Shown: positions 1-11,571 of the stretch, piece by piece
Layout of the letters: the number at the start of each line of letters is the position of its first letter
How positions within the stretch are numbered: the stretch's first letter is position 1
Made by a program: the position numbers and the translations under genes
The notes under the pieces: model-generated
The model's database searches: none
Told to the model about the DNA's origin: nothing
What the model saw: the letters and a program-made list of their open reading frames with translations, nothing else
DNA from: a virus
Length of the DNA: 11,571 nucleotides
UHGV virus genome: UHGV-0116702
Strand: one strand, 5' to 3'

Positions 1-57
1 CGAATAGCTTCACTGTGTGGACGTGCTGCATGAACCGGGCGGCTGTCTAAAATCATC

Positions 58-1720
58 AAGGTCTAAATACACTATGAGGATGATTAGGGGTTGGTAGATG
101 ATTCGGATGAAGCATCCTCATTACAAGACCAACTATAGAACTACCTGTTAATAACAGGACAATATCAGGTGAATCCCTATTCAATTTAAAGGCATTTTCC
201 CAAGTATCTAAGCAGTTTTACACAGATTCTATGCAGTATCGGTATAGTCTCTTTTTACCCTAACTTATTGAAATATATAGAGAATCTGTGAAGTCTCTTT
301 TCAGGGAACTATGCAGGGTGTTAGTCGTTCCTCTCTCGACCCTTAGAAAAGTGCTATATACAGGACTATATAACGCTATTCATGCAGTTGGTCACCATAT
401 GTTACAGTTGCAAGAGATAACAATCAGCTATGTGAAAGTTAGGAAGTGATGGTTACAGTTGATTCGGTTAGTTCTAGGAATCAACCTCATAGTTCCTTCG
501 TAGTTCCTCTTAAAAAATCACTTACAGACACCTTAATATCTATACAGATTTCATGTAGAACACGATTAGTGCGTAAAACAGCTATTATGTTAAAAACGCA
601 CTGTATACGTATCAGTACTGATTTATAAGGGTTTTGTGTATTGGATGATAAGAGGCTATGCAGCACCTTGAGAGCATGTCTTCTAAGTCATTGATACATA
701 AGGTCACAGAAGTTTGTGTCTGTTACAGAGAAAACTGGATAGGATTTCACAGAACTATAAAATGTTACAGCTATTGATAGGTTAAATCTTCTTGATAGAT
801 GCTTTGAAGTGTGGTGAAGGTTTCTTGAGGTGGAGCTAAACAGATGCTATGAAGAAAGTCAATGATATTTTAACTGCTTTTGCAAAGGGGGTGCTATATC
901 GTGAATCTGGGGTACTTAACAGCCATCAATTGAGTGTAGATATTTTTTAAGATTATCGGTGAAGGGGAATGTAGAGGGGGGTACTACGATTTTTATAAAA
1001 ATTTTCAGACTCTGAAAAGTTGCTGTACAGATTTTGCACAATCTTACCAAGCCTCATAGAAAGCTCTGTAGCGAGTTTTAACCCCATTTTTAGGGGTAAC
1101 CTGTAGGTATGTACCACCCACCTTAAAATAAAGGGGTAAAATCGCTTAGAATGCGTTACAGAGCGTCTGAGAAGCTATATTCACAGATTTTACTAAAACC
1201 TCAGACTTTCTAAGTGGTCTTTTTAACAGGAGGGGTTCCCCTATGGTCACATATCCCCTCTCTCGCTTAGTGAGCTACACAGACCTAGAGAACATGCTCT
1301 GTAACGCCTTCACAAACATTGACTAAGGTCAACTTCATAAACTCAGAGTTAAGTTACCTTGAAAGATTCTACCAAGAAACTACACAGGTATTATTTAGTC
1401 TGACTGTGAAGAGATGTTTAACGGGAGGAAGAGAACCATGAAAACCGAAGGTAGGTTCTATCTTAACAGTGACTGTAAGAGATACCTGAAAAGATACTTA
1501 ACAGAACTACCAAGAAGAGAGGGAACGATAAAACCAGAGGTAGTGACCTTGTTAAGTAGGTCGTTTCAAAGTCTCTTAAAAGTCTGTTAAGTAAGGGCTA
1601 TGTGAACAATCTTACCATTTTGTCAATGCTTTTGTCTTTGACCTAAATCAATAAAATGTATCGTTTGATGTGCTTTTAAACAAAATAGCTAAAAAATCTT
1701 TTTAGAGGGGCGCTTCGCTT
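58..1720. other. ORF-poor, motif-dense non-coding region (candidate ori / ncRNA / regulatory hub)
   Basis: The six-frame track shows only one 60-aa ORF in 1.66 kb, and it has no RBS. Region contains the conserved box copies at 1063-1075, 1145-1171 and 1296-1308, recurring CTGTGAAGAG and TTACAG/TTAACAG motifs, and a 17-bp perfect palindrome TTTTCAGACTCTGAAAA at about 1003-1019. Confidence 0.5.
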
Positions 1721-2389
1721 GTGTCACATCCAATAATCCATATCGGTCGTTATCATGGTGGTTCTGATGACTGGCGTACACCGTATCGTCTATTTCATAA
1801 CCTGCATCGTGAGTATAGCTTCAGTCTAGATGGTGCTGCAACTGAGCATGACGCATTGTTGCCACGGTTCACCGATGATATTCACAATCAATCATGGGTT
1901 GGTGAACGGGTCTTCGTTAACCCGCCGTTTAGCATGGCTGAACAGTTCCTCCTAAAAGCCCCTGAAGCTGATGTGTGTGTATGTCTGGTTCCGCACAGGT
2001 CAAAGACAACTTACTGGCTTCGGTGTGTATATACAAACCCCTTCCTGCATGAGATTCGAACGTTACACCGAGCGGTTAAATACCTTCCACCAGCAGGAAA
2101 GAGAGGTGTTGTAGCGCGTTCACCGTTTGCAAGTTGCGTTCTGATATACAGGAACACACCCCGTAAACCGAAGGTTGAAGTTACCCAGACAATCTATTGT
2201 GGCGACACAATGCTTTTACTTGCCGTGGTTAACAGGGGTGGTTTACGTGGAAGACCTCATATACACGATGCACAGACGCTTGACAGGTTGATTAAAATGC
2301 ATGACCAAGGGCAATCCATCAAGAGCATCGCAGAATCGCTAAGAATGCCTCTAAGCACCACTTACAGGATTGTTCAAAGGTTGGGCTGA
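1721..2389 (+). CDS. Phage-type N6-adenine DNA methyltransferase (Dam-like) fused to a C-terminal resolvase/invertase-type HTH domain
   Basis: 222-aa ORF with GTG start 10 nt after a GAGGGG Shine-Dalgarno. N-terminal ~155 aa carry DWRTP, LDGAA and the WVGERVFVNPPF motif with the catalytic NPPF tetrapeptide, typical of the small phage Dam family. C-terminal ~60 aa (GRPHIHDAQTLDRLIKMHDQGQSIKSIAESLRMPLSTTYRIV) match the GRP arm plus helix-turn-helix pattern of Hin/resolvase DNA-binding domains. Confidence 0.7.
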   Translation: MSHPIIHIGRYHGGSDDWRTPYRLFHNLHREYSFSLDGAATEHDALLPRFTDDIHNQSWVGERVFVNPPFSMAEQFLLKAPEADVCVCLVPHRSKTTYWLRCVYTNPFLHEIRTLHRAVKYLPPAGKRGVVARSPFASCVLIYRNTPRKPKVEVTQTIYCGDTMLLLAVVNRGGLRGRPHIHDAQTLDRLIKMHDQGQSIKSIAESLRMPLSTTYRIVQRLG

Positions 2390-2428
2390 AATTCTCATAT
2401 AGAGCACTGATTACGAGAATGTTAAAGA

Positions 2429-2462
2429 GGCGATTTCCCCTTTCTGGGGTTATTCGCTTTTT
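2429..2462 (+). terminator. Candidate intrinsic terminator downstream of the methyltransferase gene
   Basis: GGCGATTTCCCCTTTCTGGGGTTATTCGC: nested stems GCGA/TCGC and CCCC/GGGG, followed by TTTTT at 2458-2462. Confidence 0.4.
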
Positions 2463-2597
2463 ACTGGAAGGGTTATTTTACAGAGGTTTTTCAAACCCCC
2501 TCAATAATAGAAACGAGCAACAAACGAAGAGCGAGAAATAAAATATTGAGACTGGTGAACGGGGTCTGTAAAGATTGTTTAAGGGGGCAGTTAAGAA

Positions 2598-2630
2598 GGT
2601 GGCTCTCCCTTTCTGGGGTTATCGCCTTGT
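2598..2630 (+). repeat. Second, degenerate copy of the CCTTTCTGGGGTTAT hairpin motif
   Basis: GGCTCTCCCTTTCTGGGGTTATCGCC shares an ~18-nt core with the hairpin at 2429-2462 but has a weaker T-tract (CTTGTATCTT). Confidence 0.35.
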
Positions 2631-2654
2631 ATCTTAGTGAGTCCAGGAAGTTCT

Positions 2655-2835
2655 CTGTGAAGAGTCTTGTCAGTCCTTTATATTGGGTGATTACAACTCA
2701 TTGAAAAATAAGTGTTTTTAGAATTTACTGTTAAGGTTACAGAGTTAACTGTGAAGAGACTTGTCAGTTCTCTATATATGGCTAATTACAACTAATTGAA
2801 AAATAAGAACTTTTAGAAATTACTGTCAGAGAGGT
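2655..2835. repeat. Two tandem ~94-bp direct repeats (about 85% identity over ~75 bp)
   Basis: Copy 1 starts CTGTGAAGAGTCTTGTCAGTCC at 2655; copy 2 starts CTGTGAAGAGACTTGTCAGTTC at 2749. Both contain ATTACAACT, ATTGAAAAATAAG and TTTTAGAA-TTACTGT. The CTGTGAAGAG head also occurs at 1403-1412 and in variant form at 286-295 and 1468-1477. Confidence 0.6.
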
Positions 2836-2946
2836 GAATACTTGATAGATACAGCTTTCCGGTTCTGTCAAGCTATTTTTTCATAGATAGCACAAAATGC
2901 TAAAGATACCCCTATACCATCTCGTACAGGGGATTTTGGAGGGAGT

Positions 2947-3123
2947 TTAACGGGGGTCTGTGTGGTCATTATCCTTAAGGTCAAGCGTCCATGTATGACC
3001 GAACAGTTTAAAGACAACAAGCACTCTGACAAGGACGTAACGAAGTAGCAGACCTGCAATAAGTCCAATACCTCCACCAGCCCATACATCAGGTGACCCC
3101 AGTTCAGGAGGGAGATTTACCAT
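2947..3123 (-). CDS. Hypothetical small membrane protein (58 aa, one predicted TM helix)
   Basis: ATG at 3123-3121 preceded by AAGGA with 6-nt spacing on the minus strand. Product MVNLPPELGSPDVWAGGGIGLIAGLLLRYVLVRVLVVFKLF... has a glycine-rich hydrophobic stretch. The track ORF 2947-3165 is the same frame extended to a TTG. Divergent from the 3421 operon. Confidence 0.3.
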   Translation of the reverse strand: MVNLPPELGSPDVWAGGGIGLIAGLLLRYVLVRVLVVFKLFGHTWTLDLKDNDHTDPR

Positions 3124-3136
3124 TAGTTTTCCTTGT

Positions 3137-3235
3137 AAGACGCTCTCAATCGCATTCTGACACAAAAAGTACCTGACCTTATGAGTTGACCTTAAGAGGC
3201 TGTTTAACTCGTTACAGAGCGATTGAAGAGGTCTG
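3137..3235. repeat. Inverted-repeat-bracketed element, copy 1 (conserved left and right arms, divergent interior)
   Basis: Left arm AGACGCTCTCAATCGCATTCT (3138-3158); right arm CTGTTTAACTCGTTACAGAGCGATTGAAGAGGTCTG (3200-3235). Arms are imperfect reverse complements sharing GCGATTGAG and GTCTG. Interior contains a doubled TGACCTTA. Confidence 0.55.
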
Positions 3236-3341
3236 TGTGCAATGCAATAACCATGTGACCACTCTCATAGCCACGCCTTTATATTTTACTCTCCCCATAG
3301 AACCATTATACCATAGATGTTAATAAATTGTTAAAAAATGC

Positions 3342-3370
3342 TTGACATTAGTCTTTGAAACTGCTAGTAT
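3342..3370 (+). promoter_or_regulatory. Candidate sigma70-type promoter for the 3421-4658 operon
   Basis: TTGACA (3342-3347), 17-nt spacer, TAGTAT (3365-3370); A/T-rich upstream tract TTAAAAAATG; about 50 nt upstream of the ATG at 3421. Confidence 0.45.
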
Positions 3371-3420
3371 TGTACATATAAGTTAACAGAGAATTAACAA
3401 TTATAAGGACTAGCTTATGA

Positions 3421-3900
3421 ATGAACGACAGAGAATTTAGAGCGATGCTTCAGGCATCAAGAGAACGCAAAGGCATTGACGAAGTAATTCGGGCAATTAC
3501 ACCGAGGAGTCGTTATATGCCAACCAGAAAGAGCACCCAGAACACTATTAAAAATTATTTGGCTAACTTCGACAGCTACGAGCAACTACCAAGTAAGCTT
3601 GATGATATTTTCATTGGATTCTGTAGAAGTGAAGGCCACCCGAAATACAACAAAAAACTATTTTATCTTCTAAAGAATCTTGACGAAATTAACTCAGCTA
3701 CCGTGACAAATTATCTTCAGCGACAAGCAACCAGACTTAGTTATGAATTACCAAGCGATAAATATTGTGCATTGCTTGCTGTAATGTGTGCAAAGCTAAT
3801 TGGTATTGTTGAACATCATATTGCCGTTGGTAATATTGAGCCAATGGAAAACGAGCAACCAGACTTTGAGTTTGACCCGTATATTTTGGAGGAATTTTAA
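3421..3900 (+). CDS. Hypothetical protein (159 aa) with acidic C-terminal tail
   Basis: ATG with AAGGA SD about 11 nt upstream; first gene after the candidate promoter; ends ...ENEQPDFEFDPYILEEF. No family recognised by eye. Confidence 0.6.
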   Translation: MNDREFRAMLQASRERKGIDEVIRAITPRSRYMPTRKSTQNTIKNYLANFDSYEQLPSKLDDIFIGFCRSEGHPKYNKKLFYLLKNLDEINSATVTNYLQRQATRLSYELPSDKYCALLAVMCAKLIGIVEHHIAVGNIEPMENEQPDFEFDPYILEEF

Positions 3901-3901
3901 A

Positions 3902-4183
3902 ATGAAAAACAAACACACATTAACCCGCATTTCAGAGGAAGCTTTTAACGAGCTTACCAGAATTAAACGAGCTACTAACTTGCCTCATCAAACTGTAATG
4001 CAGCTTGCAATTGCTAAAGAGGTTACTGAGTCGGATTTACTGAAATATCCAGTCTCTAAAGGTCGTAAACACATCCGAATTAGTCAGGACGCTTTAGCTA
4101 CTTTGAAGGCGCTTAACGGCTTTAAGATTGATATTGCCCGTCTATTGAGTCTTAAAATTCACAAGCTGTCTCTGGAGGTCTGA
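3902..4183 (+). CDS. Hypothetical small protein (93 aa), possibly DNA-binding
   Basis: ATG at 3902 lies 1 nt after the upstream stop, with GGAGGA about 12 nt upstream. Preferred over the track's TTG start at 3800, which overlaps the upstream gene. Two internally similar segments (TLTRISEEAFNELTRIK / KHIRISQDALATLKAL) suggest a repeated motif; the DNA-binding idea is speculative. Confidence 0.55.
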   Translation: MKNKHTLTRISEEAFNELTRIKRATNLPHQTVMQLAIAKEVTESDLLKYPVSKGRKHIRISQDALATLKALNGFKIDIARLLSLKIHKLSLEV

Positions 4184-4185
4184 TT

Positions 4186-4458
4186 ATGAAGCAATGGCGA
4201 GATGATATTAAACGGTTCTTTGCAACTTACTTCATGATTAATTACGAAACAGGAATGCTTGAATGGATTGATGGTGGAGAGGTTAAGACAAGAGATGACG
4301 CTTACGGTAATCCAATGATTCGTTATGGCACTCGTGATTATTATGTGAAATATGTCATCTGGTTTTTGCATCATGAAGTTCAGGCAACTAAAAAAATTAT
4401 CTTCAGGGATGGTAATAAAAGAAATTGCCACCCAAACAATTTACTACTGGAGATTTAA
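4186..4458 (+). CDS. HNH_3-family (homing-endonuclease-like) small protein, possibly catalytically degenerate
   Basis: 90 aa; ATG 8 nt after GGAGG and 3 nt after the upstream stop. C-terminal YYVKYVIWFLHHEVQATKKIIFRDGNKRNCHPNNL matches the HNH_3 pattern (YYVHRLV...VxHIDGNKxNNxxxNL), but by my manual alignment the HID histidine is Phe (IIFRDGNK). Confidence 0.55.
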   Translation: MKQWRDDIKRFFATYFMINYETGMLEWIDGGEVKTRDDAYGNPMIRYGTRDYYVKYVIWFLHHEVQATKKIIFRDGNKRNCHPNNLLLEI

Positions 4459-4658
4459 TGCTATGTATTAAATTCGAATATTTGACAGATAAAATGATTA
4501 AGCATGTATCAGACCTGCTCATCAAAGAAGATGGTTTCGGTGATGTTTGCAATCCAAAAGATATCTTCATTCACGCCACCAGCCCAAATGAAACACTGAA
4601 AACAGCAGTTACAGCGGAATGGTTTGAACGAAATAAAGTAGAATTAGGCTATTGGTAG
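4458..4658 (+). CDS. Hypothetical protein (66 aa)
   Basis: ATG overlaps the upstream stop (TAATG) with GGAG 5 nt upstream, indicating translational coupling. Track ORF 4425-4658 is the same frame from a TTG inside the HNH gene. Confidence 0.5.
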   Translation: MLCIKFEYLTDKMIKHVSDLLIKEDGFGDVCNPKDIFIHATSPNETLKTAVTAEWFERNKVELGYW

Positions 4659-4692
4659 TCCGAGACTTTAAGAGAAATTAGAAAAACAGCTT

Positions 4693-4816
4693 CTCAGACG
4701 CTCTCAATCGCATTCTAACGCAAAAAACTATCTTATTTTAGGGTGGGTAATACCACTGTACAGGCTACCCCTGAAAAAGACTGTTTAGCTCGTTACAGAG
4801 CGATTGAGGAGGTCTG
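4693..4816. repeat. Inverted-repeat-bracketed element, copy 2
   Basis: Left arm CAGACGCTCTCAATCGCATTCT (4695-4716); right arm CTGTTTAGCTCGTTACAGAGCGATTGAGGAGGTCTG (4781-4816). Arms are nearly identical to copy 1 (right arm 35/37) while the interior differs in sequence and length. Ends 22 nt before the ATG at 4838. Confidence 0.55.
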
Positions 4817-4837
4817 GTAAAAAGGAGATTTTAGGAA

Positions 4838-5161
4838 ATGAACAATTACGAATTACAGATTTTCGTTGATAGCGACACCGCTATGATGATTCAGGCTTTC
4901 ACTGATGTAGGTGTTAGCATTGACTTTGACAGGCTGTTAAGGCTAATGGCTGATAACTCAGAAACAATTGAAGATTTTATTCAGTCGGTGGAGTTTAACG
5001 AGCCTCGAATGATGCTACCAATTAAAGACAGCAACATGAAAAGATTGGTTATCGAGCAAACGAACAAATTCAGCATTAGCCCTGAAAGATATCTCAAGGC
5101 AGCTATAGCAATTTTGTACGCTGACAATATTCTGGTGACGGATTCTGTGAGGATTCACTAA
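4838..5161 (+). CDS. Hypothetical protein (107 aa)
   Basis: ATG 9 nt after AAAAAGGAG SD; no recognisable motif. Confidence 0.6.
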   Translation: MNNYELQIFVDSDTAMMIQAFTDVGVSIDFDRLLRLMADNSETIEDFIQSVEFNEPRMMLPIKDSNMKRLVIEQTNKFSISPERYLKAAIAILYADNILVTDSVRIH

Positions 5162-5238
5162 TGGGTTTAATAATTGCTTGGGCGTTGCTTGGCTTATTTG
5201 TTGGTTGCTGGGTAGGTAACACAGTAAATAAGAATTGA
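5161..5238 (+). CDS. Candidate 25-aa hydrophobic microprotein (MGLIIAWALLGLFVGCWVGNTVNKN)
   Basis: ATG overlaps the stop of the 107-aa gene (TAATG). Sequence is almost entirely one TM-like helix with a polar C-terminus. Too short for the ORF track; support is overlap geometry and composition only. Confidence 0.3.
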   Translation: MGLIIAWALLGLFVGCWVGNTVNKN

Positions 5239-5262
5239 TGTTACCAATCTGTTAAAAAGCTG

Positions 5263-5291
5263 TTGACAAATAACCTTGAGCATGACATAAT
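5263..5291 (+). promoter_or_regulatory. Candidate sigma70-type promoter
   Basis: TTGACA (5263-5268), 17-nt spacer, CATAAT (5286-5291). The track's 67-aa ORF 5263-5466 begins inside this -35 hexamer. Confidence 0.4.
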
Positions 5292-5481
5292 TGTATATAT
5301 GAGGATAGTCTTCTATCCGAAGTCTATGAGGAGAGCAATTCTCTCTTATTTTCTTTCAATAATCCGATGGATGGATATTCTGAGTTGGAAAGGTGCAATG
5401 CTTTTCGTCATGGCCTTTCAGTTTAGTCTGAGAGGCTATCTCAAAAAGTGCTTAATCATTCATTGAACCCTTTACAGCTTT

Positions 5482-5510
5482 GCCCTAACTCATGATTAGG
5501 GCTTTCTTTA
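5482..5510 (+). terminator. Candidate intrinsic terminator
   Basis: GCCCTAA-CTCATGA-TTAGGGC perfect 7-bp stem followed by TTTCTTTA. Confidence 0.45.
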
Positions 5511-5579
5511 AGAGTTTTTAAACAGAGCTTTTAAAGAAAGTTTTTCCTGAAACTTCGTTAACGTTAAAGCAAACCTTCA

Positions 5580-5613
5580 AAGCCCTTCACAGATTATGTT
5601 TAGGGCTTTTCTT
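5580..5613 (+). terminator. Second candidate terminator hairpin (related stem)
   Basis: AAGCCCT - 15-nt loop - AGGGCTT followed by TTTCTT; shares the AGGGCTTT(T)CTT tail with the hairpin at 5482-5510. Confidence 0.4.
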
Positions 5614-5708
5614 AATAGAGCATCTTTAATAAATCGTTAAGTCATCTTCTAAGTGTATTGGCGTTGAAGGTGCTCTATTAAGAAATAACCACTTAGAGGA
5701 AAATTATA

Positions 5709-6419
5709 ATGACAAACGATTTATATATTAACGGTAAAAAGGTTGATAGCTTCGGTGACTGGTCGCCACAGACTGAACATCCAGCTATCACTATCCAGCG
5801 TAAAGAACATGATGAAAGAATTGCACTTGAGCAAGAAATCCGAATGTCACCAAAGGTAATTACCTTTGTAGCTCCTGAGCCTCAAGAGATGCCTGATATT
5901 TGCAAAACTCAAGCATTACTTGAGCTTGAGCGTGAATATTACCCACTGCTGAAAGCACAAAGAATTAAACTTGATATTGCTTACGACAATGTGAAGAACT
6001 TTGAAGAGACTGAAAAGCCAACTGATTTTGATATTGAAGTGGAAATTAGACAAAACCCATTCGTATATTACTCAGTTGAGGATAATGATGGTTTTGGTAC
6101 AGCAAGAGAGAATATCTCAAAAGTTCTTCAAAACATCCCTGAAGGATTCCGTTTAATTGATGTTAGACCAGCTTCACGCGGTACAGGTTCATATATTTTA
6201 CTGTCTGATAAAACAGATGAAGAGATTTGTCAGTTAGCTGAAAAGAATCTACTTGAGCGTCATAGCAAAAAATTAAACAGATTTAAGCAAGAACTTGCTA
6301 ACCAGCTTCAGGCTATGAAAGACCTTATTTCTGCATATGAAACGCAGAAGAAGGTTGCTATGCAGGCTGATATTGAGCAGTTAGTGAAGATTTCTCAGAA
6401 ATACGCAAAGGCACTTTGA
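5709..6419 (+). CDS. Hypothetical protein (236 aa), acidic with helical C-terminal region
   Basis: ATG about 10 nt after AGAGGA SD; long uninterrupted ORF; no family recognised by eye. Confidence 0.65.
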   Translation: MTNDLYINGKKVDSFGDWSPQTEHPAITIQRKEHDERIALEQEIRMSPKVITFVAPEPQEMPDICKTQALLELEREYYPLLKAQRIKLDIAYDNVKNFEETEKPTDFDIEVEIRQNPFVYYSVEDNDGFGTARENISKVLQNIPEGFRLIDVRPASRGTGSYILLSDKTDEEICQLAEKNLLERHSKKLNRFKQELANQLQAMKDLISAYETQKKVAMQADIEQLVKISQKYAKAL

Positions 6420-6444
6420 CTATGAATTAAAAAGGAGGTGATGA

Positions 6445-6648
6445 ATGTTTGATTTAACGGAACGCTATGAACTTATTAAAGCAATTAGCGAGAGATTGAA
6501 AGAACAACCCAACAAACCAAAACGAATCAAATCATCCACCTCTAAACAAAATAACAGAATCAGAAAAATTGCTAAATGGTGTCTGGATAGATTACCAAGT
6601 GATTGTCAGATTGTCGGTGAAGATGGCAATTATTATCTGATTAGGTAA
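6445..6648 (+). CDS. Hypothetical small basic protein (67 aa)
   Basis: ATG 5 nt after AAAAAGGAGG SD; lysine/arginine-rich centre (KPKRIKSSTSKQNNRIRKIAKW). Confidence 0.55.
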   Translation: MFDLTERYELIKAISERLKEQPNKPKRIKSSTSKQNNRIRKIAKWCLDRLPSDCQIVGEDGNYYLIR

Positions 6649-6673
6649 AGAATTGGTTGGGTGAAAATCTACG

Positions 6674-6714
6674 GGAGAGATTATCGAGTGACATCGGTAG
6701 TTTCTCCTTTTTTT
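6674..6714 (+). terminator. Candidate intrinsic terminator
   Basis: GGAGAGA (6674-6680) pairs with TTTCTCC (6701-6707) with one G-U pair, then T7 (6708-6714). The 20-nt loop is long, so confidence is moderate. Confidence 0.4.
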
Positions 6715-6736
6715 GTATGTGTGCTACATGAAATCT

Positions 6737-6787
6737 GTAAAGCTAATATCCACACTGAAAAATAGAATTTACGTAGCTCACGCTTAA
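6737..6787 (+). repeat. Direct repeat A (51 bp, 38-bp perfect core) immediately upstream of the tape-measure gene
   Basis: GTAAAGCTAATATCCACACTGAAAAATAGAATTTACGTAGCTCACGCTTAA. Core 6750-6787 is identical to 9024-9061. Contains a -10-like TAGAAT with no good -35. Confidence 0.8.
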
Positions 6788-6804
6788 AGAGGTGAAAAAT
6801 ATGA

Positions 6805-8985
6805 ATGAGCAAATTCACAGTTGATAGTTTTATCGTTGAACTAGGCTTCAATGAAAACGTTATTAAGGGCTTGCAAAGAGTTGAAAAGGCAGCTTTGCAG
6901 TCAGCACAAAGAATTGAACGTAATTTGAATAGAGCGTTTAAGGTCGATACCAAGCAACTTGACAGCAACCTGACAAGTTCTTTAGGGCAACTTGAAAGGA
7001 AGTTTAATAAGACCTTTGACAAGATTGAACAGAGAGCAAGAAATACTAAAGCTTTCCAGTTTACCACCAGATTTAATGACACTGTTAATCCTCCAAAACA
7101 ACCGAGACAGCCACGAATTAGCGGCAACAGAGCAATCACAGCAGCGCATAGCGTGAATATGTCTAAGCTTGGTGATATTAATCCGCTGATGGCTAAAATG
7201 TTTAAAGCACAGTATTACAGCTTAAGCGGTAAGGCTGGTAATATTGGAAGTGAAAAGTTTAACGCTGAACTTGCAAAATTAAATCAATCTCTTCGTGAAA
7301 CGTTGAATAAACTCAGGTCACAGACAAAGACCACCAGCATTAACAATACAAGCGACGCATTTAATAATCTTGCAAGCAATGCAATCAAGTTATCTGGTGC
7401 ATTTTACTCTGTGATGGGTGCTCTTAACGCTTACAAGGCCATTATGAATGCAGGTCTTAAACGAGATTCCGCACAGAGAGCCGCTAAGTTTGTACTTGGT
7501 GATAAAGCATCTGAAGCTGAGGTATTTATTCGAAATTTAGCAGACAAGACAGGTCTTAATATCTCTGAAGGGCTATCAAGCTACGCTAAGTTTGCAGCAG
7601 GTGCTCAGGGTTCTATGTCACAGGAACAGACACAGGAGCTATTTGGTAATGCAACGGCTATGAGTCGCTTAATGGGGCTTTCTAACGATGAGCTAAACGG
7701 CATTTTGAAAGCATTTGAGCAGATGGCGAGCAAGGGCAAGATTCAGGCTGAAGAGCTTCGTGGACAGTTAGGTGACCGTATGGCTGGTGCATTTAAGCTA
7801 TTCGCTGAAGCATTGGGTATGACTGCTACAGAGCTTGATAAAGCGATGAAAGACGGGAAGATTTTAAGTAGTGATACTCTCCCTAAAGTCGCTAAACAGA
7901 TGGGCTTGATGATTGATAAAGCGGGTGGCTGGGCTGAAGTCGCTAAGAGCACTCAGACAGCTTTAGGGAAACTGGCTAACAACTGGGATGATACGATGGT
8001 GAAAATCTTCTCAGGTTCACAGGATGAGCTAAACGGCTTCTTATCCAGCCTGAGTAACCTGCTTAGTGAAATGGGGATGAGTTCATCTATCGCTGGTGAT
8101 GCTATCGGTGGACTTATCGACATGCTTAAAGCTGGTGTGGATGACATCCGTATCTTTAACAATCACCTTGAAGGCTGGATTCTACAGACTAAGAAGTTCT
8201 ATTACAGCCTTGATGACACTAAACGAAAACTACTTGATGAAGTCGGTGATGGTTTTATCAACTTCGTCAAAGGTCTTGCTATAGCGTTATCTGCAAAGAC
8301 ACTATTCAGTGCTGCTACAGGGGTTATAAACCTGACAAGAGCAATCACAACGTTAGGTACAAGAGCTAATCAGGTTGCTGGTCAGGTAGCTACTGGTAAA
8401 GGTGGTGGAAAACTGAAAGGTGTAGCTGGTGGTGTAGGTAGTGCTCTTGCAATTGGTTATGCTGATGACGGTTATGAAACAGCGTTAGCATTAGCTTCAA
8501 TGATTCCACAAATCAGAGGCGTCACTCTTGGTTTATATGCATTGAAGAAAGCACTGGATTTTATGAATCAGGAAGTAGTCAAAAACGCTAATATGCATCC
8601 ATCTGGGGTAGGTGTGGGTAGTGACTTTAATCCCGTGTATTCTGGTGACCCTAATAAACCGAATATGATTAACGAAGGATGGGGTAGAATTTTTAGTTCA
8701 ATGGGTGAATTGTTTAACAATGCCACAATGAATATTGCAAGATTCAATCATCCAGAGTTAAACAACATTAAGCAAGATTCAGCATTAACGAGTGCAGATA
8801 TTCAGAGTCTGAGGGATGAAATCTCTGCTTTAAGTAAGCGTATTCAGGAGCCTGTGAAAGTTTCCTTGGGTGGTGAAGTTGCCATTAAACCAGATGAAAC
8901 CAGCTTTATGACCTTTAGCAGTAATATCTACGACCAATATGCAGAAGCTACGCTATTAAGTTCATCATTCCCAGAAGATGATTGA
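6805..8985 (+). CDS. Phage tail tape-measure-domain protein (726 aa)
   Basis: N-terminal coiled-coil-like segment, then LNGILKAFEQMASKGKIQAEELRGQLGDRMAGAFKLFAEALGMTATELDKAMKDGKILSSDTLPKVAKQMG, which matches the conserved tape-measure core. Downstream there are glycine-rich hydrophobic stretches (ATGKGGGKLKGVAGGVGSALAIGYA). SD AAGAGG is about 13 nt upstream. Confidence 0.7.
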   Translation: MSKFTVDSFIVELGFNENVIKGLQRVEKAALQSAQRIERNLNRAFKVDTKQLDSNLTSSLGQLERKFNKTFDKIEQRARNTKAFQFTTRFNDTVNPPKQPRQPRISGNRAITAAHSVNMSKLGDINPLMAKMFKAQYYSLSGKAGNIGSEKFNAELAKLNQSLRETLNKLRSQTKTTSINNTSDAFNNLASNAIKLSGAFYSVMGALNAYKAIMNAGLKRDSAQRAAKFVLGDKASEAEVFIRNLADKTGLNISEGLSSYAKFAAGAQGSMSQEQTQELFGNATAMSRLMGLSNDELNGILKAFEQMASKGKIQAEELRGQLGDRMAGAFKLFAEALGMTATELDKAMKDGKILSSDTLPKVAKQMGLMIDKAGGWAEVAKSTQTALGKLANNWDDTMVKIFSGSQDELNGFLSSLSNLLSEMGMSSSIAGDAIGGLIDMLKAGVDDIRIFNNHLEGWILQTKKFYYSLDDTKRKLLDEVGDGFINFVKGLAIALSAKTLFSAATGVINLTRAITTLGTRANQVAGQVATGKGGGKLKGVAGGVGSALAIGYADDGYETALALASMIPQIRGVTLGLYALKKALDFMNQEVVKNANMHPSGVGVGSDFNPVYSGDPNKPNMINEGWGRIFSSMGELFNNATMNIARFNHPELNNIKQDSALTSADIQSLRDEISALSKRIQEPVKVSLGGEVAIKPDETSFMTFSSNIYDQYAEATLLSSSFPEDD

Positions 8986-9010
8986 TTTAACGGTGTTCTA
9001 CGTGAATAAA

Positions 9011-9061
9011 GCAAAGTTAATACCCACACTGAAAAATAGAATTTACGTAGCTCACGCTTAA
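9011..9061 (+). repeat. Direct repeat B (copy of repeat A) immediately downstream of the tape-measure gene
   Basis: GCAAAGTTAATACCCACACTGAAAAATAGAATTTACGTAGCTCACGCTTAA; 48/51 identical to 6737-6787, offset 2274 bp; lies about 80 nt upstream of the ATG at 9142. Confidence 0.8.
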
Positions 9062-9141
9062 CAGAGAAAATACTTATATATCAAAGGCTTGGTTAAAAAT
9101 GATTAAAATACACTAAGCCTTTGAAATCAAAGGAGAATTTA

Positions 9142-9930
9142 ATGATTTTTAGCAATCAAATCCGCTACAGTGGCAAAGATGGCGTTTACTTCCACTTAAG
9201 AGATAATGTAGATGCCTTCTTAACCTTATCAGCAACTGAGAACATGGAATTTGATAGCCCTATGCAGGTGACTACACAGAACATGCAATCAGGGCAAACC
9301 GTCACAGATAATGTGCAAAGAGCACCCAGAACAATCACTATTAGCGGTGTCGTTGTAGTTGGCTATGAAGGGAGCTTATTATTAACTCGTCAGGGTCAAT
9401 TAGTAGAGAACTTCATCGACACTCTTGAAAACTGGCGTGACCAGAAACAAATTATTTCGGTCATCTGTAAAGACGGAATTAAAATTGATGATTCCATTAT
9501 CACAAGTTTTAAAGCCTCTAAAGATGTTGGAATTTCAAACGGATTAAGAATCCAACTAACTTTTCAGGAAATTAACTTCAGAGCTGTTGTGGGGCAGACT
9601 GATATCTCGGCTGCAACTGGAAAAGCCGCGACTACGAACGATGGTGGTGTGACCAGTAAGAAGAATGCAGGTAACGTGACCACTGAACGCAATAACGCGC
9701 CTATGCTATCGTGCAAAGAGCTAATGAGTATTAGCGATGTATCCGGTTACGCTCCAGCTATCAGAAATGATATTCTCGATGCTCAGATTAAGTGTAATAA
9801 GGCTTGGAAGCTGGACTATTCAGACTTAACAGAAGCTGAAAAAACCAACGTCACCAATGCTAATAGTAACGCTGGTCGGGTAGCTTCAAAGCTTAAAAAG
9901 TACTCAGTGAACCCTCACAAAAAATACTAA
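9142..9930 (+). CDS. Hypothetical protein (262 aa); possibly tail-associated on positional grounds only
   Basis: ATG 6 nt after AAGGAG SD; the track ORF from 9121 is the same frame from an upstream TTG. Sits directly after the tape-measure gene, where siphophages usually encode the distal tail protein, but I see no diagnostic motif. Confidence 0.55.
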
Positions 9931-11450
9931 ATCTCTACTACATCAACATCTATTAAACCCCTCTCAGTGACTTCAGAAAGCGACTGTATAGCCTCTGTAA
10001 CGTCCTCTGAGGGGTTTTCTGTTATTGATAAGGTGATTGACTTACCATTGTGAAAAGTTACTTTACAGCGACGTTTAGCAGTATTTAAAACGACCTCTTT
10101 AACAGCACTTTTGATTATCAGTTGTGCTTCAATTCTCCCCGCCTTTGTAGTCAAGTCACAATCAGACAAACACCCCACATCAATAGATTTAAGGCGTTGT
10201 GTCTCCTTCTCGATATCCGCATCAACCTGTGATAGCTCACCTTTTAACTGCTTTAGTTTGATGGTAATAGCTGACAAATCTTCAATTTCAAGTGATAGCT
10301 GTACCAGCTTTTCAATATTGCTTGAGATGTGTTCACGGTGTAGCCTCAACATATCTATGGTATTCGTCGTATCGCTATCAAATCGGTCAAGACGAGATAG
10401 CAGAGTAAGCAATGTACCATCGGTTTGCTTACGTGAAAGTCCTTTAGCACTACAACGGTTTTCATTACGAAGAGGACAACGATAAATCCCGTTTCTTGTA
10501 TCACTAAAGCCTGTGATAATCAGAGCATGACCACATTCAGAACAACGGATAACACCTTTAAAGAGATTCACACTCAATGGTTTATCTGAAACAGACCTCT
10601 TTCCATAACGAGAATGTGATAGTTGTTGAACTTTGTAGAATGTTGTTTCATCTATAATTGCAGGATAATAACCAGCTATCTCCTCACAGCCTTTAGGTGT
10701 GAAGTAACCAATTACAGAGCGATTCTTCAGAAGGTCTTGTACTGAGGTTTGACCAAACTTACCAGCTTTATATTGGTTAAGCGTCTGGTGACCTTCATCA
10801 TTAAGAGTCCTGACAATCGCCCAGATAGATTTGCCCTCTAACCGTAGCTGAAAGCACCTCTTCACAGTTTCTACCTTCTCAGGTATTACAGAGAAGCTTT
10901 TACGGTCATCATTCAGCCTTAACCATGCAGGACAACGCCTAGAAATCTTGATACCAGCTTTAGCAGCTTCTTTCTTTGCATCCCATGCAGCTTGTATACG
11001 CTCAGCCTTACGTAATGATTCCTCATGCGCCCTTTGCATTATCAGAATGCTTTTAATCAGGGATAACGGGTCTCTTAAGCTTTCCTTTGTGTAATGTTCA
11101 CCATCGGACAAGGTGACTACATCTACACCAGAGCGAAGAATGTTTCGTAATAGCTCACTTGCTCGGTCTACGGCCTGACGTGACAAACGGTCTAAACTCT
11201 CGATTAGTAGTGTATCACCAGCTTTAACAAGCCCTTTCTCGATAGCGGTTAAAAAGTCACCTAAGCCACCTTTCAAGTGCTTACCAGTGAATCCACTCAC
11301 ACCTAAATCACGGAAGGATAAATCTTGGTCAAGGTAGTACTCAGGTTGAGCCTTAAGCCAGTCATTAACCATCTTAGACTGTCTGCGTAGTGAATCACCT
11401 CGGGATTGCTTCTCAGATGAAAACCTGATGTAAGAAATGGCACGTTTCAT
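9927..11450 (-). CDS. Large serine recombinase (integrase, 507 aa)
   Basis: N-terminal resolvase-type catalytic domain with the nucleophile motif YIRFSSEKQ and arginines in DRLSR; central recombinase region; Cys-rich zinc ribbon CSECGH...[11 protein letters not shown]; C-terminal coiled-coil-like segment. GAGGTG SD 4 nt before the ATG. Confidence 0.9.
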
Positions 11451-11476
11451 TGTTCACCTCAAAACTGATGCCCTAG

Positions 11477-11505
11477 ATTGTATCGTTTTAGATGGTGTAT
11501 TTAAA
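11477..11505 (-). promoter_or_regulatory. Candidate promoter for the recombinase gene
   Basis: On the minus strand: TTTAAA, 17-nt spacer, TACAAT, about 25 nt upstream of the recombinase ATG. The -35 is weak. Confidence 0.3.
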
Positions 11506-11571
11506 CGTGTCTAATAAAAATCACCCGATTAACGCCGCGCTGATGTAAACCGCGATTAAGCGTTTGTTCCT

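Follow-up and report, generated by a model that had tools for sequence, protein, structure and literature searches.

The DNA analysed here, a stretch of 11,571 nucleotides (the window), encodes a serine recombinase close to its right end, and a reading made from the letters alone had marked positions 11451-11571, between this gene and the edge, as a candidate attachment region. The locus thus raises the question of whether this region is the site at which the recombinase joins mobile DNA to its host and, if so, at which base the two meet. From comparison of the sequence with that of E. coli strains and of related elements, 11451-11571 is very probably the attR of an 11,468-bp island that was inserted into yecE, an E. 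coli core gene, by the large serine recombinase that it encodes. The island spans window 51-11518, the crossover dinucleotide AA being counted once. An entire metagenome contig (ENA ERZ1755996 NODE_2718_length_11571_cov_40.3) is identical to the window when read on the opposite strand, and the identical 11,571 bases were found inside two longer gut-metagenome contigs, where their neighbours are the E. coli genes yecN and cmoA at one end, yecD and aspS at the other.

Borders of the island and the interrupted host gene

Each end of the window was compared by BLAST with 5,426 complete E. coli genomes. Window 1-55 was found in 5,424 of them, with 100% identity in more than 5,400, and window 11517-11571 in 5,419, mostly at 100% identity; both are annotated as yecE (DUF72). 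Island sequence lay next to the left flank in 148 of the 5,426 genomes, and the recombinase end together with attR was present in 251 (about 5%), from many hosts and countries. The features of the two junctions are as follows.

1-48, minus strand: host flank, 3' part of the interrupted yecE (DUF72), by identity in more than 5,400 E. coli genomes
27-48: putative B arm of attB, TGCATGAACCGGGCGGCTGTCT, within the left host flank
49-55: AAAATCA, common to attL, attR, attB and attP of the type-1 element and its apparent 'core', from the length of the empty site
49-50: crossover dinucleotide AA in attL, from the type-2 relatives L010, L011 and L012 and as the centre of the attP dyad
51-72, plus strand: P' arm of attP, AATCATCAAGGTCTAAATACAC, identical in the type-1 attL copies examined (window, L001, L003-L008) and in L009
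11495-11516, plus strand: P arm of attP, GTGTATTTAAACGTGTCTAATA, the same in each of the 16 type-1 attR copies and part of the dyad
11517-11518: crossover dinucleotide AA in attR, from the empty site, the dyad and the type-2 relatives
11519-11540: putative B' arm of attB, AATCACCCGATTAACGCCGCGC, within the right host flank
11519-11571, minus strand: host flank, 5' part of yecE, by identity of 11517-11571 in most of 5,419 E. coli genomes

The empty yecE site consists of window 1-55 followed directly by 11524-11571, with a single copy of AAAATCA (49-55 = 11517-11523), and its length is 103 bp (55 + 55 - 7). In strain EC571, which has an empty site, window 1-55 aligned with 274589-274643 and window 11517-11571 with 274637-274691; the two flanks are likewise contiguous in the empty site L002. 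The insertion lies about 477 nt into the 819-nt yecE reading frame (codon ~160), and in carrier strains RefSeq annotates yecE as two pseudogene halves, consistent with this insertion point.

These results agree with much of what the sequence-only reading had proposed. All of the strings that it quoted are present in the window (CGATTAACGCC...AAGCGTT at 11526-11564, GTCTAATAAAAATCA at 11509-11523 and GTCTAAAATCATC at 45-57). The likeness that it saw between 11509-11523 and 45-57 is far above chance and corresponds to the recombination core, the overlap AAAATCA being found in the empty site. The empty-site comparison, which it had itself named as a way to refute the proposal, placed the junctions within the flagged sequences, at 49-55 on the left and 11517-11523 on the right. 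Its suggestion that a rise in GC content at both extremes marks host DNA was also borne out: GC content is 58% in window 1-48 and 52% in 11524-11571, compared with 39.5% in the interior (56-11516), and both flanks are yecE.

Position of the crossover

The sequences of attL and/or attR were read in the window, in 10 RefSeq loci and in 9 IMG/VR loci. The island was joined to yecE at the identical base in all 19 attR copies, which came from independent strains and IMG/VR contigs. Type 1 comprises 16 of these copies, including that of the window, and reads ...GTCTAATA-AAAATCA-CCCG. Type 2 was represented by three attR copies (L010, L012 and L031), which read ...GTCTGATG-AA-AATCACCCG and in which the AA is followed by AATCACCC, and by two attL copies (L011 and L012), which read GGCTGTCT-AA-GATTAGCAAGG. 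Since attB is GGCTGTCT-AA-AATCACCCG, the only bases common to the host attB and to both the type-2 attL and attR are AA, indicating that the exchange takes place at window 49-50 and 11517-11518. In the element of the window the shared core is 7 bp long because the P' arm chances to start with AATCA, as the B' arm does. Insertion is therefore precise, with no duplication beyond the crossover dinucleotide (7 bp shared in type 1, AA in type 2). A non-palindromic crossover of 2 bp is a signature of serine integrases.

A crossover inside the TGTCTAA similarity, taken from the alignment of the sequence-only reading, was also considered. It predicts an attL of the form ...GTCTAATAAAAATCATC, which is not observed.

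Structure of attP and attB

Joining the right end of the island to its left end gave a reconstructed attP of about 46 bp, GTGTATTTAAACGTGTCTAATA-AA-AATCATCAAGGTCTAAATACAC. Conservation, together with the known properties of other large serine recombinases, leads us to infer arms of 22 bp. The attP block of about 46-51 bp is unchanged among the type-1 relatives while the neighbouring sequence diverges, and in L011 the similarity on the P' side stops exactly after GTCTAAATACAC (base 72), 22 bp from the centre. The P arm of the three type-2 attR copies differs from that of type 1 at two inner positions, and the P' arm of the type-2 copies at three. The recombinases are 91-95% identical among all loci, across both att types, so that the inner six positions of each arm can evidently vary.

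The outer part of attP is an inverted repeat, GTGTATTTAAAC at 11495-11506 and GTCTAAATACAC at 61-72, which is split across the ends of the window and was absent from the sequence-only reading. The best dyad axis of attP is the crossover AA itself, with 15 of 22 matches in type 1 and 16 of 22 in type 2; the type-1 score was matched anywhere by 4 in 1000 shuffles of a 168-bp region. The best axis of attB lies 2 bp to the left of the AA (14 of 22 matches, reached by 12 in 1000 shuffles), and about the AA itself its half-sites have only A..CA.CCG in common.

The symmetry that had been put forward as a feature of the element was another one, AACGC...GCGTT. This proposal did not hold, as the segment concerned (11526-11564) is yecE coding sequence in 5,419 of the 5,426 E. 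coli genomes; the B' arm of attB takes in no more than about the first 15 nt of it. The AACGC/GCGTT hairpin has arms of 5 bp, and the folding energies of the sequence as single-stranded DNA are -6.8 kcal/mol (z = -1.6) and -8.3 kcal/mol (z = -2.1), values equalled by 16 of 200 and 6 of 200 shuffles, respectively.

By analogy with the known chemistry of large serine recombinases, on which the following scheme is modelled, one integrase dimer would bind the imperfectly symmetric attP (~46 bp) of the circular island and another dimer would bind attB in yecE. All four strands would then be cut with a 2-nt stagger at the AA, the subunits would rotate, and religation would give the hybrid sites attL and attR, the orientation being fixed because AA is not palindromic. 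Excision should need a directionality factor and would yield an intact yecE and a circular island with attP. The general properties of serine integrases are summarised in PMC9638900.

The integrase gene and its leader

Two features lie between the cargo genes and the P arm.

9927-11450, minus strand: large serine recombinase (integrase) of 507 aa, from Pfam, PHROG and N-terminal motifs
11451-11494, minus strand: leader of the integrase gene, from reading of the sequence and a promoter scan

The protein matched Pfam families PF00239 Resolvase (74.5 bits), PF07508 Recombinase (58.2 bits) and PF13408 Zn_ribbon_recom (30.5 bits), all above the cut-offs, with the Resolvase alignment spanning profile positions 1-144, and it matched PHROG 95 'integrase' at 4e-77. 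Its translation contains Y7-I-R-F-S11-S-E-K-Q and, at residues 85-90, L-D-R-L-S-R, which we take to be the YxRxS(T/S)xxQ and LDRLxR catalytic motifs of resolvases. The 507-aa ORF is intact in all 11 loci in which it was read. The crossover lies 67-68 nt upstream of the start codon, in agreement with the earlier proposal that the attachment junction would be found just 5' of the serine recombinase gene.

Within the leader, a Shine-Dalgarno sequence GAGGTG (minus strand, 11456-11461) is located 5 nt ahead of the integrase ATG. The promoter scan gave one sigma-70-like site on the minus strand, with a -35 element TTTAAA at 11505-11500 and a -10 element TACAAT at 11482-11477. This candidate promoter agrees with the consensus at 9 of 12 positions, and 0.5 such sites are expected by chance in the region; it is also present in L009. 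From 11477 rightwards the sequence is conserved even among relatives that differ further left. Since the -35-like TTTAAA falls within the P arm, binding of the integrase could repress its own promoter, a suggestion drawn from this overlap.

A relative at the ymdF locus (L023, E. coli O177:H21, near ymdF/rutG) has cargo equivalent to window ~141-9930 and a different recombinase. Homology between this relative and the island breaks at about window 141 and 9930, indicating that the integrase gene and the att site form one exchangeable module. The recombinase gene of L023 is interrupted by an IS21-family element.

Free form and coexistence of occupied and unoccupied sites

The sequence-only reading had proposed inverse PCR for the circular attP junction. 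In the computational equivalent of this assay the junction was found on the metagenome contig L009 (ERZ1090866 NODE_760, 11,473 bp, 6x), an 80-91% relative of the island that carries attP uninterrupted in mid-contig and contains no yecE sequence. Once a 43-nt adapter is set aside, the ends of L009 align with an integrated relative at its positions 3129 and 3124, 4 bp apart, so that the contig represents a complete circular permutation. The adapter, at 1-43 of the reverse complement of L009, is an untrimmed Nextera sequence. The attP junction was seen once, in this single metagenome contig at 6x. A tandem integrated array could give the same attP sequence, but no branch from the contig into host DNA is seen.

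Exact and degenerate searches with the attP junctions of both types gave no match in IMG/VR, and there was no match to the attP junction in the GTDB species-representative genomes. The nine recombinase loci of IMG/VR were all integrated, with attR at the identical base, and none was a free form. When the GTDB species-representative genomes were searched for the recombinase, the one match was a 548-bp contig (L016) from the assembly 'Mycobacterium sp. NAZ190054', which carries the start of the island's integrase gene and the P arm and is probably E. coli contamination.

The ends of contigs also carried information on the junction. At its two ends the contig of the window stops exactly 55 nt after attL and attR, respectively, depart from attB, a length that would correspond to the usual largest k of metaSPAdes, and a Logan contig (L022) ends exactly 30 nt (k-1) beyond 11517. 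Ends at fixed offsets from the junction indicate that the assembly graphs branch there, and thus that occupied and unoccupied yecE coexist in the gut samples concerned. A mixture of strains and excision are equally compatible with this branching.

Alternative explanations

The island is bordered by a direct repeat of 7 bp and has inverted repeats near both its ends, as in a transposon for which AAAATCA would be the target-site duplication and GTGTATTTAAAC / GTCTAAATACAC the terminal inverted repeats recognised by a transposase; moreover, RefSeq labels homologues of the 236-aa ORF at 5709-6419 'transposase' in several relatives. We regard this explanation as extremely unlikely. The same base of yecE was used in 19 of 19 attR copies, the type-2 repeat is only 2 bp long, so that there is no 7-bp duplication of host DNA, and the inverted repeats sit 9-10 bp inside the ends, not at them. 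In addition, a swapped recombinase goes with a changed insertion locus, and the 'transposase' label looks unsupported, as the 236-aa ORF has no family match in Pfam, PHROG, NCBIfam or PADLOC. The junction could also be real and yet belong to a decayed prophage remnant, fixed in yecE, whose att site is no longer used. The lack of capsid, terminase and recognisable replication genes and the IS insertions in some relatives would fit such a fossil, but the intact recombinase ORF at every locus read, the constancy of the attP arms within type 1 despite divergence of the neighbouring DNA, and the assembly of a full-length free or circular form from a metagenome all argue against it. So do the two assembly graphs that branch exactly at the junction, with occupied and non-occupied yecE side by side in gut samples, and the presence of the island, with mosaic cargo, in only 251 of 5,426 genomes from many hosts and countries. 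A fossil site is thus highly unlikely.

The right edge had further been likened, with low confidence, to an integron-type attC site (reverse strand AACAAACGC...GCGGCGTTA), which would be recognised by the tyrosine recombinase IntI. Sites of the attC type are imperfect palindromes of 55-140 nt with the consensus RYYYAAC for R'' and GTTRRRY for R'. On the minus strand AACAAAC and GTTAATC loosely resemble these motifs, and the bottom strand folds weakly (the value of -8.3 kcal/mol given above). The resemblance did not withstand closer comparison: by eye, the R'' candidate has two mismatches to the consensus and the R' candidate one, the unit of about 40 nt is shorter than known attC sites, and the window has no gene for IntI or any other tyrosine recombinase and no gene cassette array. 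Moreover, the sequence lies outside the island and is the yecE coding DNA of 5,419 of 5,426 E. coli genomes, with or without the island. A scan of the whole window at E <= 1 with Rfam, a collection that has no attC model, gave no match of any kind. The probability that this edge is an attC site is negligible.

Cargo and relationship to Felixounavirus phages

The island that the large serine recombinase would have brought into yecE carries the following features, the genes being taken from the ORF listing with Pfam and PHROG matches.

77-135, plus strand: 59-bp island similar to a gene-free region of Felixounavirus, just inside attL and outside the att site
86-131, 853-896, 991-1042, 1486-1514, 1517-1571 and 1565-1601: six short islands similar to Felixounavirus EC106
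1721-2389: Dam-type methyltransferase with a helix-turn-helix domain
4186-4458: small HNH protein
6719-6787 and 8993-9061: 69-nt direct repeat, 87% identical, upstream of the tape-measure and Dit-like genes
6805-8985: tape measure protein
9121-9930: Dit-like tail protein

Several other ORFs of the window had no family match in Pfam or PHROG. No capsid, portal or terminase match was found in the island with Pfam, PHROGs and NCBIfam, and PADLOC detected no defence system in the window, its sole match being an orphan methyltransferase.

Window 7711-9675, which covers parts of the tape-measure and Dit-like genes, showed 88-95% DNA identity to virulent Felixounavirus (Felix O1-like) phages. The first ~150 aa of the Dit-like protein are nearly identical to the protein of phage garuso and the similarity declines toward the C-terminus, and the tape measure is a mosaic, with about 33% identity overall and islands of 70-80%. 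The two genes abut in the phage; in the island each is preceded by the 69-nt repeat, of which a 30-nt inverted partial copy is found at 534-563. The repeat was not found in the phage database and is a candidate island-specific regulatory element. The left end of the island (56-1720, 1.66 kb) is poor in ORFs, and its six short islands resemble parts of a gene-free region of about 1.7 kb in EC106. Segment 77-135, the extent of the first of these islands in a second comparison, has 88-91% identity to NBEco004, where it occurs in two copies 628 bp apart, and to EC106. These short segments may mimic cis-acting sequences of the phage.

No description of the island or of its att site was found in the literature searched. 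In PMC11069274 a 544-bp locus was reported to be common to the virulent phage vB_EcoM_DE7 and to E. coli chromosomes in which PHASTER saw no prophage; this locus is probably the Dit-like gene of the island. The island is apparently undescribed, appears to borrow tail genes of Felix O1-like phages and may be a phage satellite. A PLE-like satellite or a tail-interference island is a reasonable hypothesis. Taken together, the observations would fit, and we put this forward tentatively as one possible reading, a new family of E. coli satellites or interfering islands that parasitises Felixounavirus and is the counterpart of PLE. Such an island would reside in yecE by means of its large serine recombinase and would excise on infection with a directionality factor supplied by the phage. 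Its mimics of non-coding cis elements of the phage would serve replication or packaging, and its chimeric tape-measure and Dit proteins would be inserted into the tail assembly line of the helper.

Other repeats were noted in the island. A unit of about 100-165 bp with CGTTACAGAGCG occurs in three copies (1044-1207, 3132-3235 and 4657-4820), two of them direct and upstream of the gene blocks that start at 3421 and 4838 and one inverted, and the integrase gene contains a fourth, short one (10705-10724); this unit is probably a promoter/operator module. A non-coding cluster of direct repeats follows the methyltransferase gene (2421-2826) and includes a tandem duplication of about 94 bp (2649-2731 / 2743-2826) and a 33-nt repeat at 2421 and 2590, which could be iterons or an origin. 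Some relatives (L006 at 732-1301, and others) have near the attL end a second, small gene of the recombinase family (~190 aa), which is not present in the island of the window.

Significance and comparison with known systems

The att site itself is routine and of a known kind, and the interest lies mainly in the island that it delimits. Natural variants fix the crossover, so that a precise attP/attB pair is now available for an uncharacterised large serine recombinase of E. coli, and such pairs are raw material for genome-engineering tools. The exact borders delimit an 11.5-kb island that about 5% of complete E. coli genomes contain and that is seemingly built to interact with virulent Felix O1-like phages. 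With known borders the question of a PLE-like satellite in E. coli becomes testable, and Felix O1-like phages are widely proposed for biocontrol and therapy.

Listeria phage A118 inserts in comK. The system described here resembles those of A118 (integrase structure PDB 4KIS), phiC31 and Bxb1 in its three-domain enzyme, in an attP of about 46-50 bp that lies beside int and is an imperfect palindrome, in an attB of different sequence, in a non-palindromic 2-bp crossover and in insertion inside a gene. It differs from them in that the carrier is a small island and not a complete phage, and the A118 integrase shows only remote similarity to that of the island (E = 5e-4 over 74 residues). Neither yecE as a target of this system nor the attP sequence was found in the literature searched. 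The likeness to integron attC sites, by comparison, is limited to the two short minus-strand motifs.

The best NCBIfam matches of the recombinase were the large serine recombinases that excise the gene-interrupting fdxN element (XisF) and SCCmec (CcrA/CcrB). Like these elements, the island splits a host gene, which would become whole again on precise excision. The scores of 44.6, 43.2 and 23.5 bits, against cut-offs of 700, 375 and 900, place the recombinase outside these families.

Stx-converting and related lambdoid prophages also target yecE, and in 16 such records the match to the right flank of the window falls on the first ~90 bases. Unlike the island, these phages use a tyrosine integrase and an excisionase, and their 21-bp duplicated site is located about 380 bp further into yecE (403-423 of the record L018, compared with 22-76 for the window flank). 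In strain W444 a tyrosine-integrase element occupies yecE together with this island (L012, 11994-12164).

Like the present element, the PLE of Vibrio cholerae is an integrated island of small size that has a large serine recombinase, an attP and clear ties to a virulent myovirus; the likeness is one of organisation. Integration of PLE needs only Int and the att sites, whereas its excision needs a directionality factor, which for PLE1 is the phage-supplied PexA (PMC9638900). In the case described here the host is E. coli, the putative helper is a Felixounavirus, and the island itself carries homologues of the tape-measure and Dit genes.
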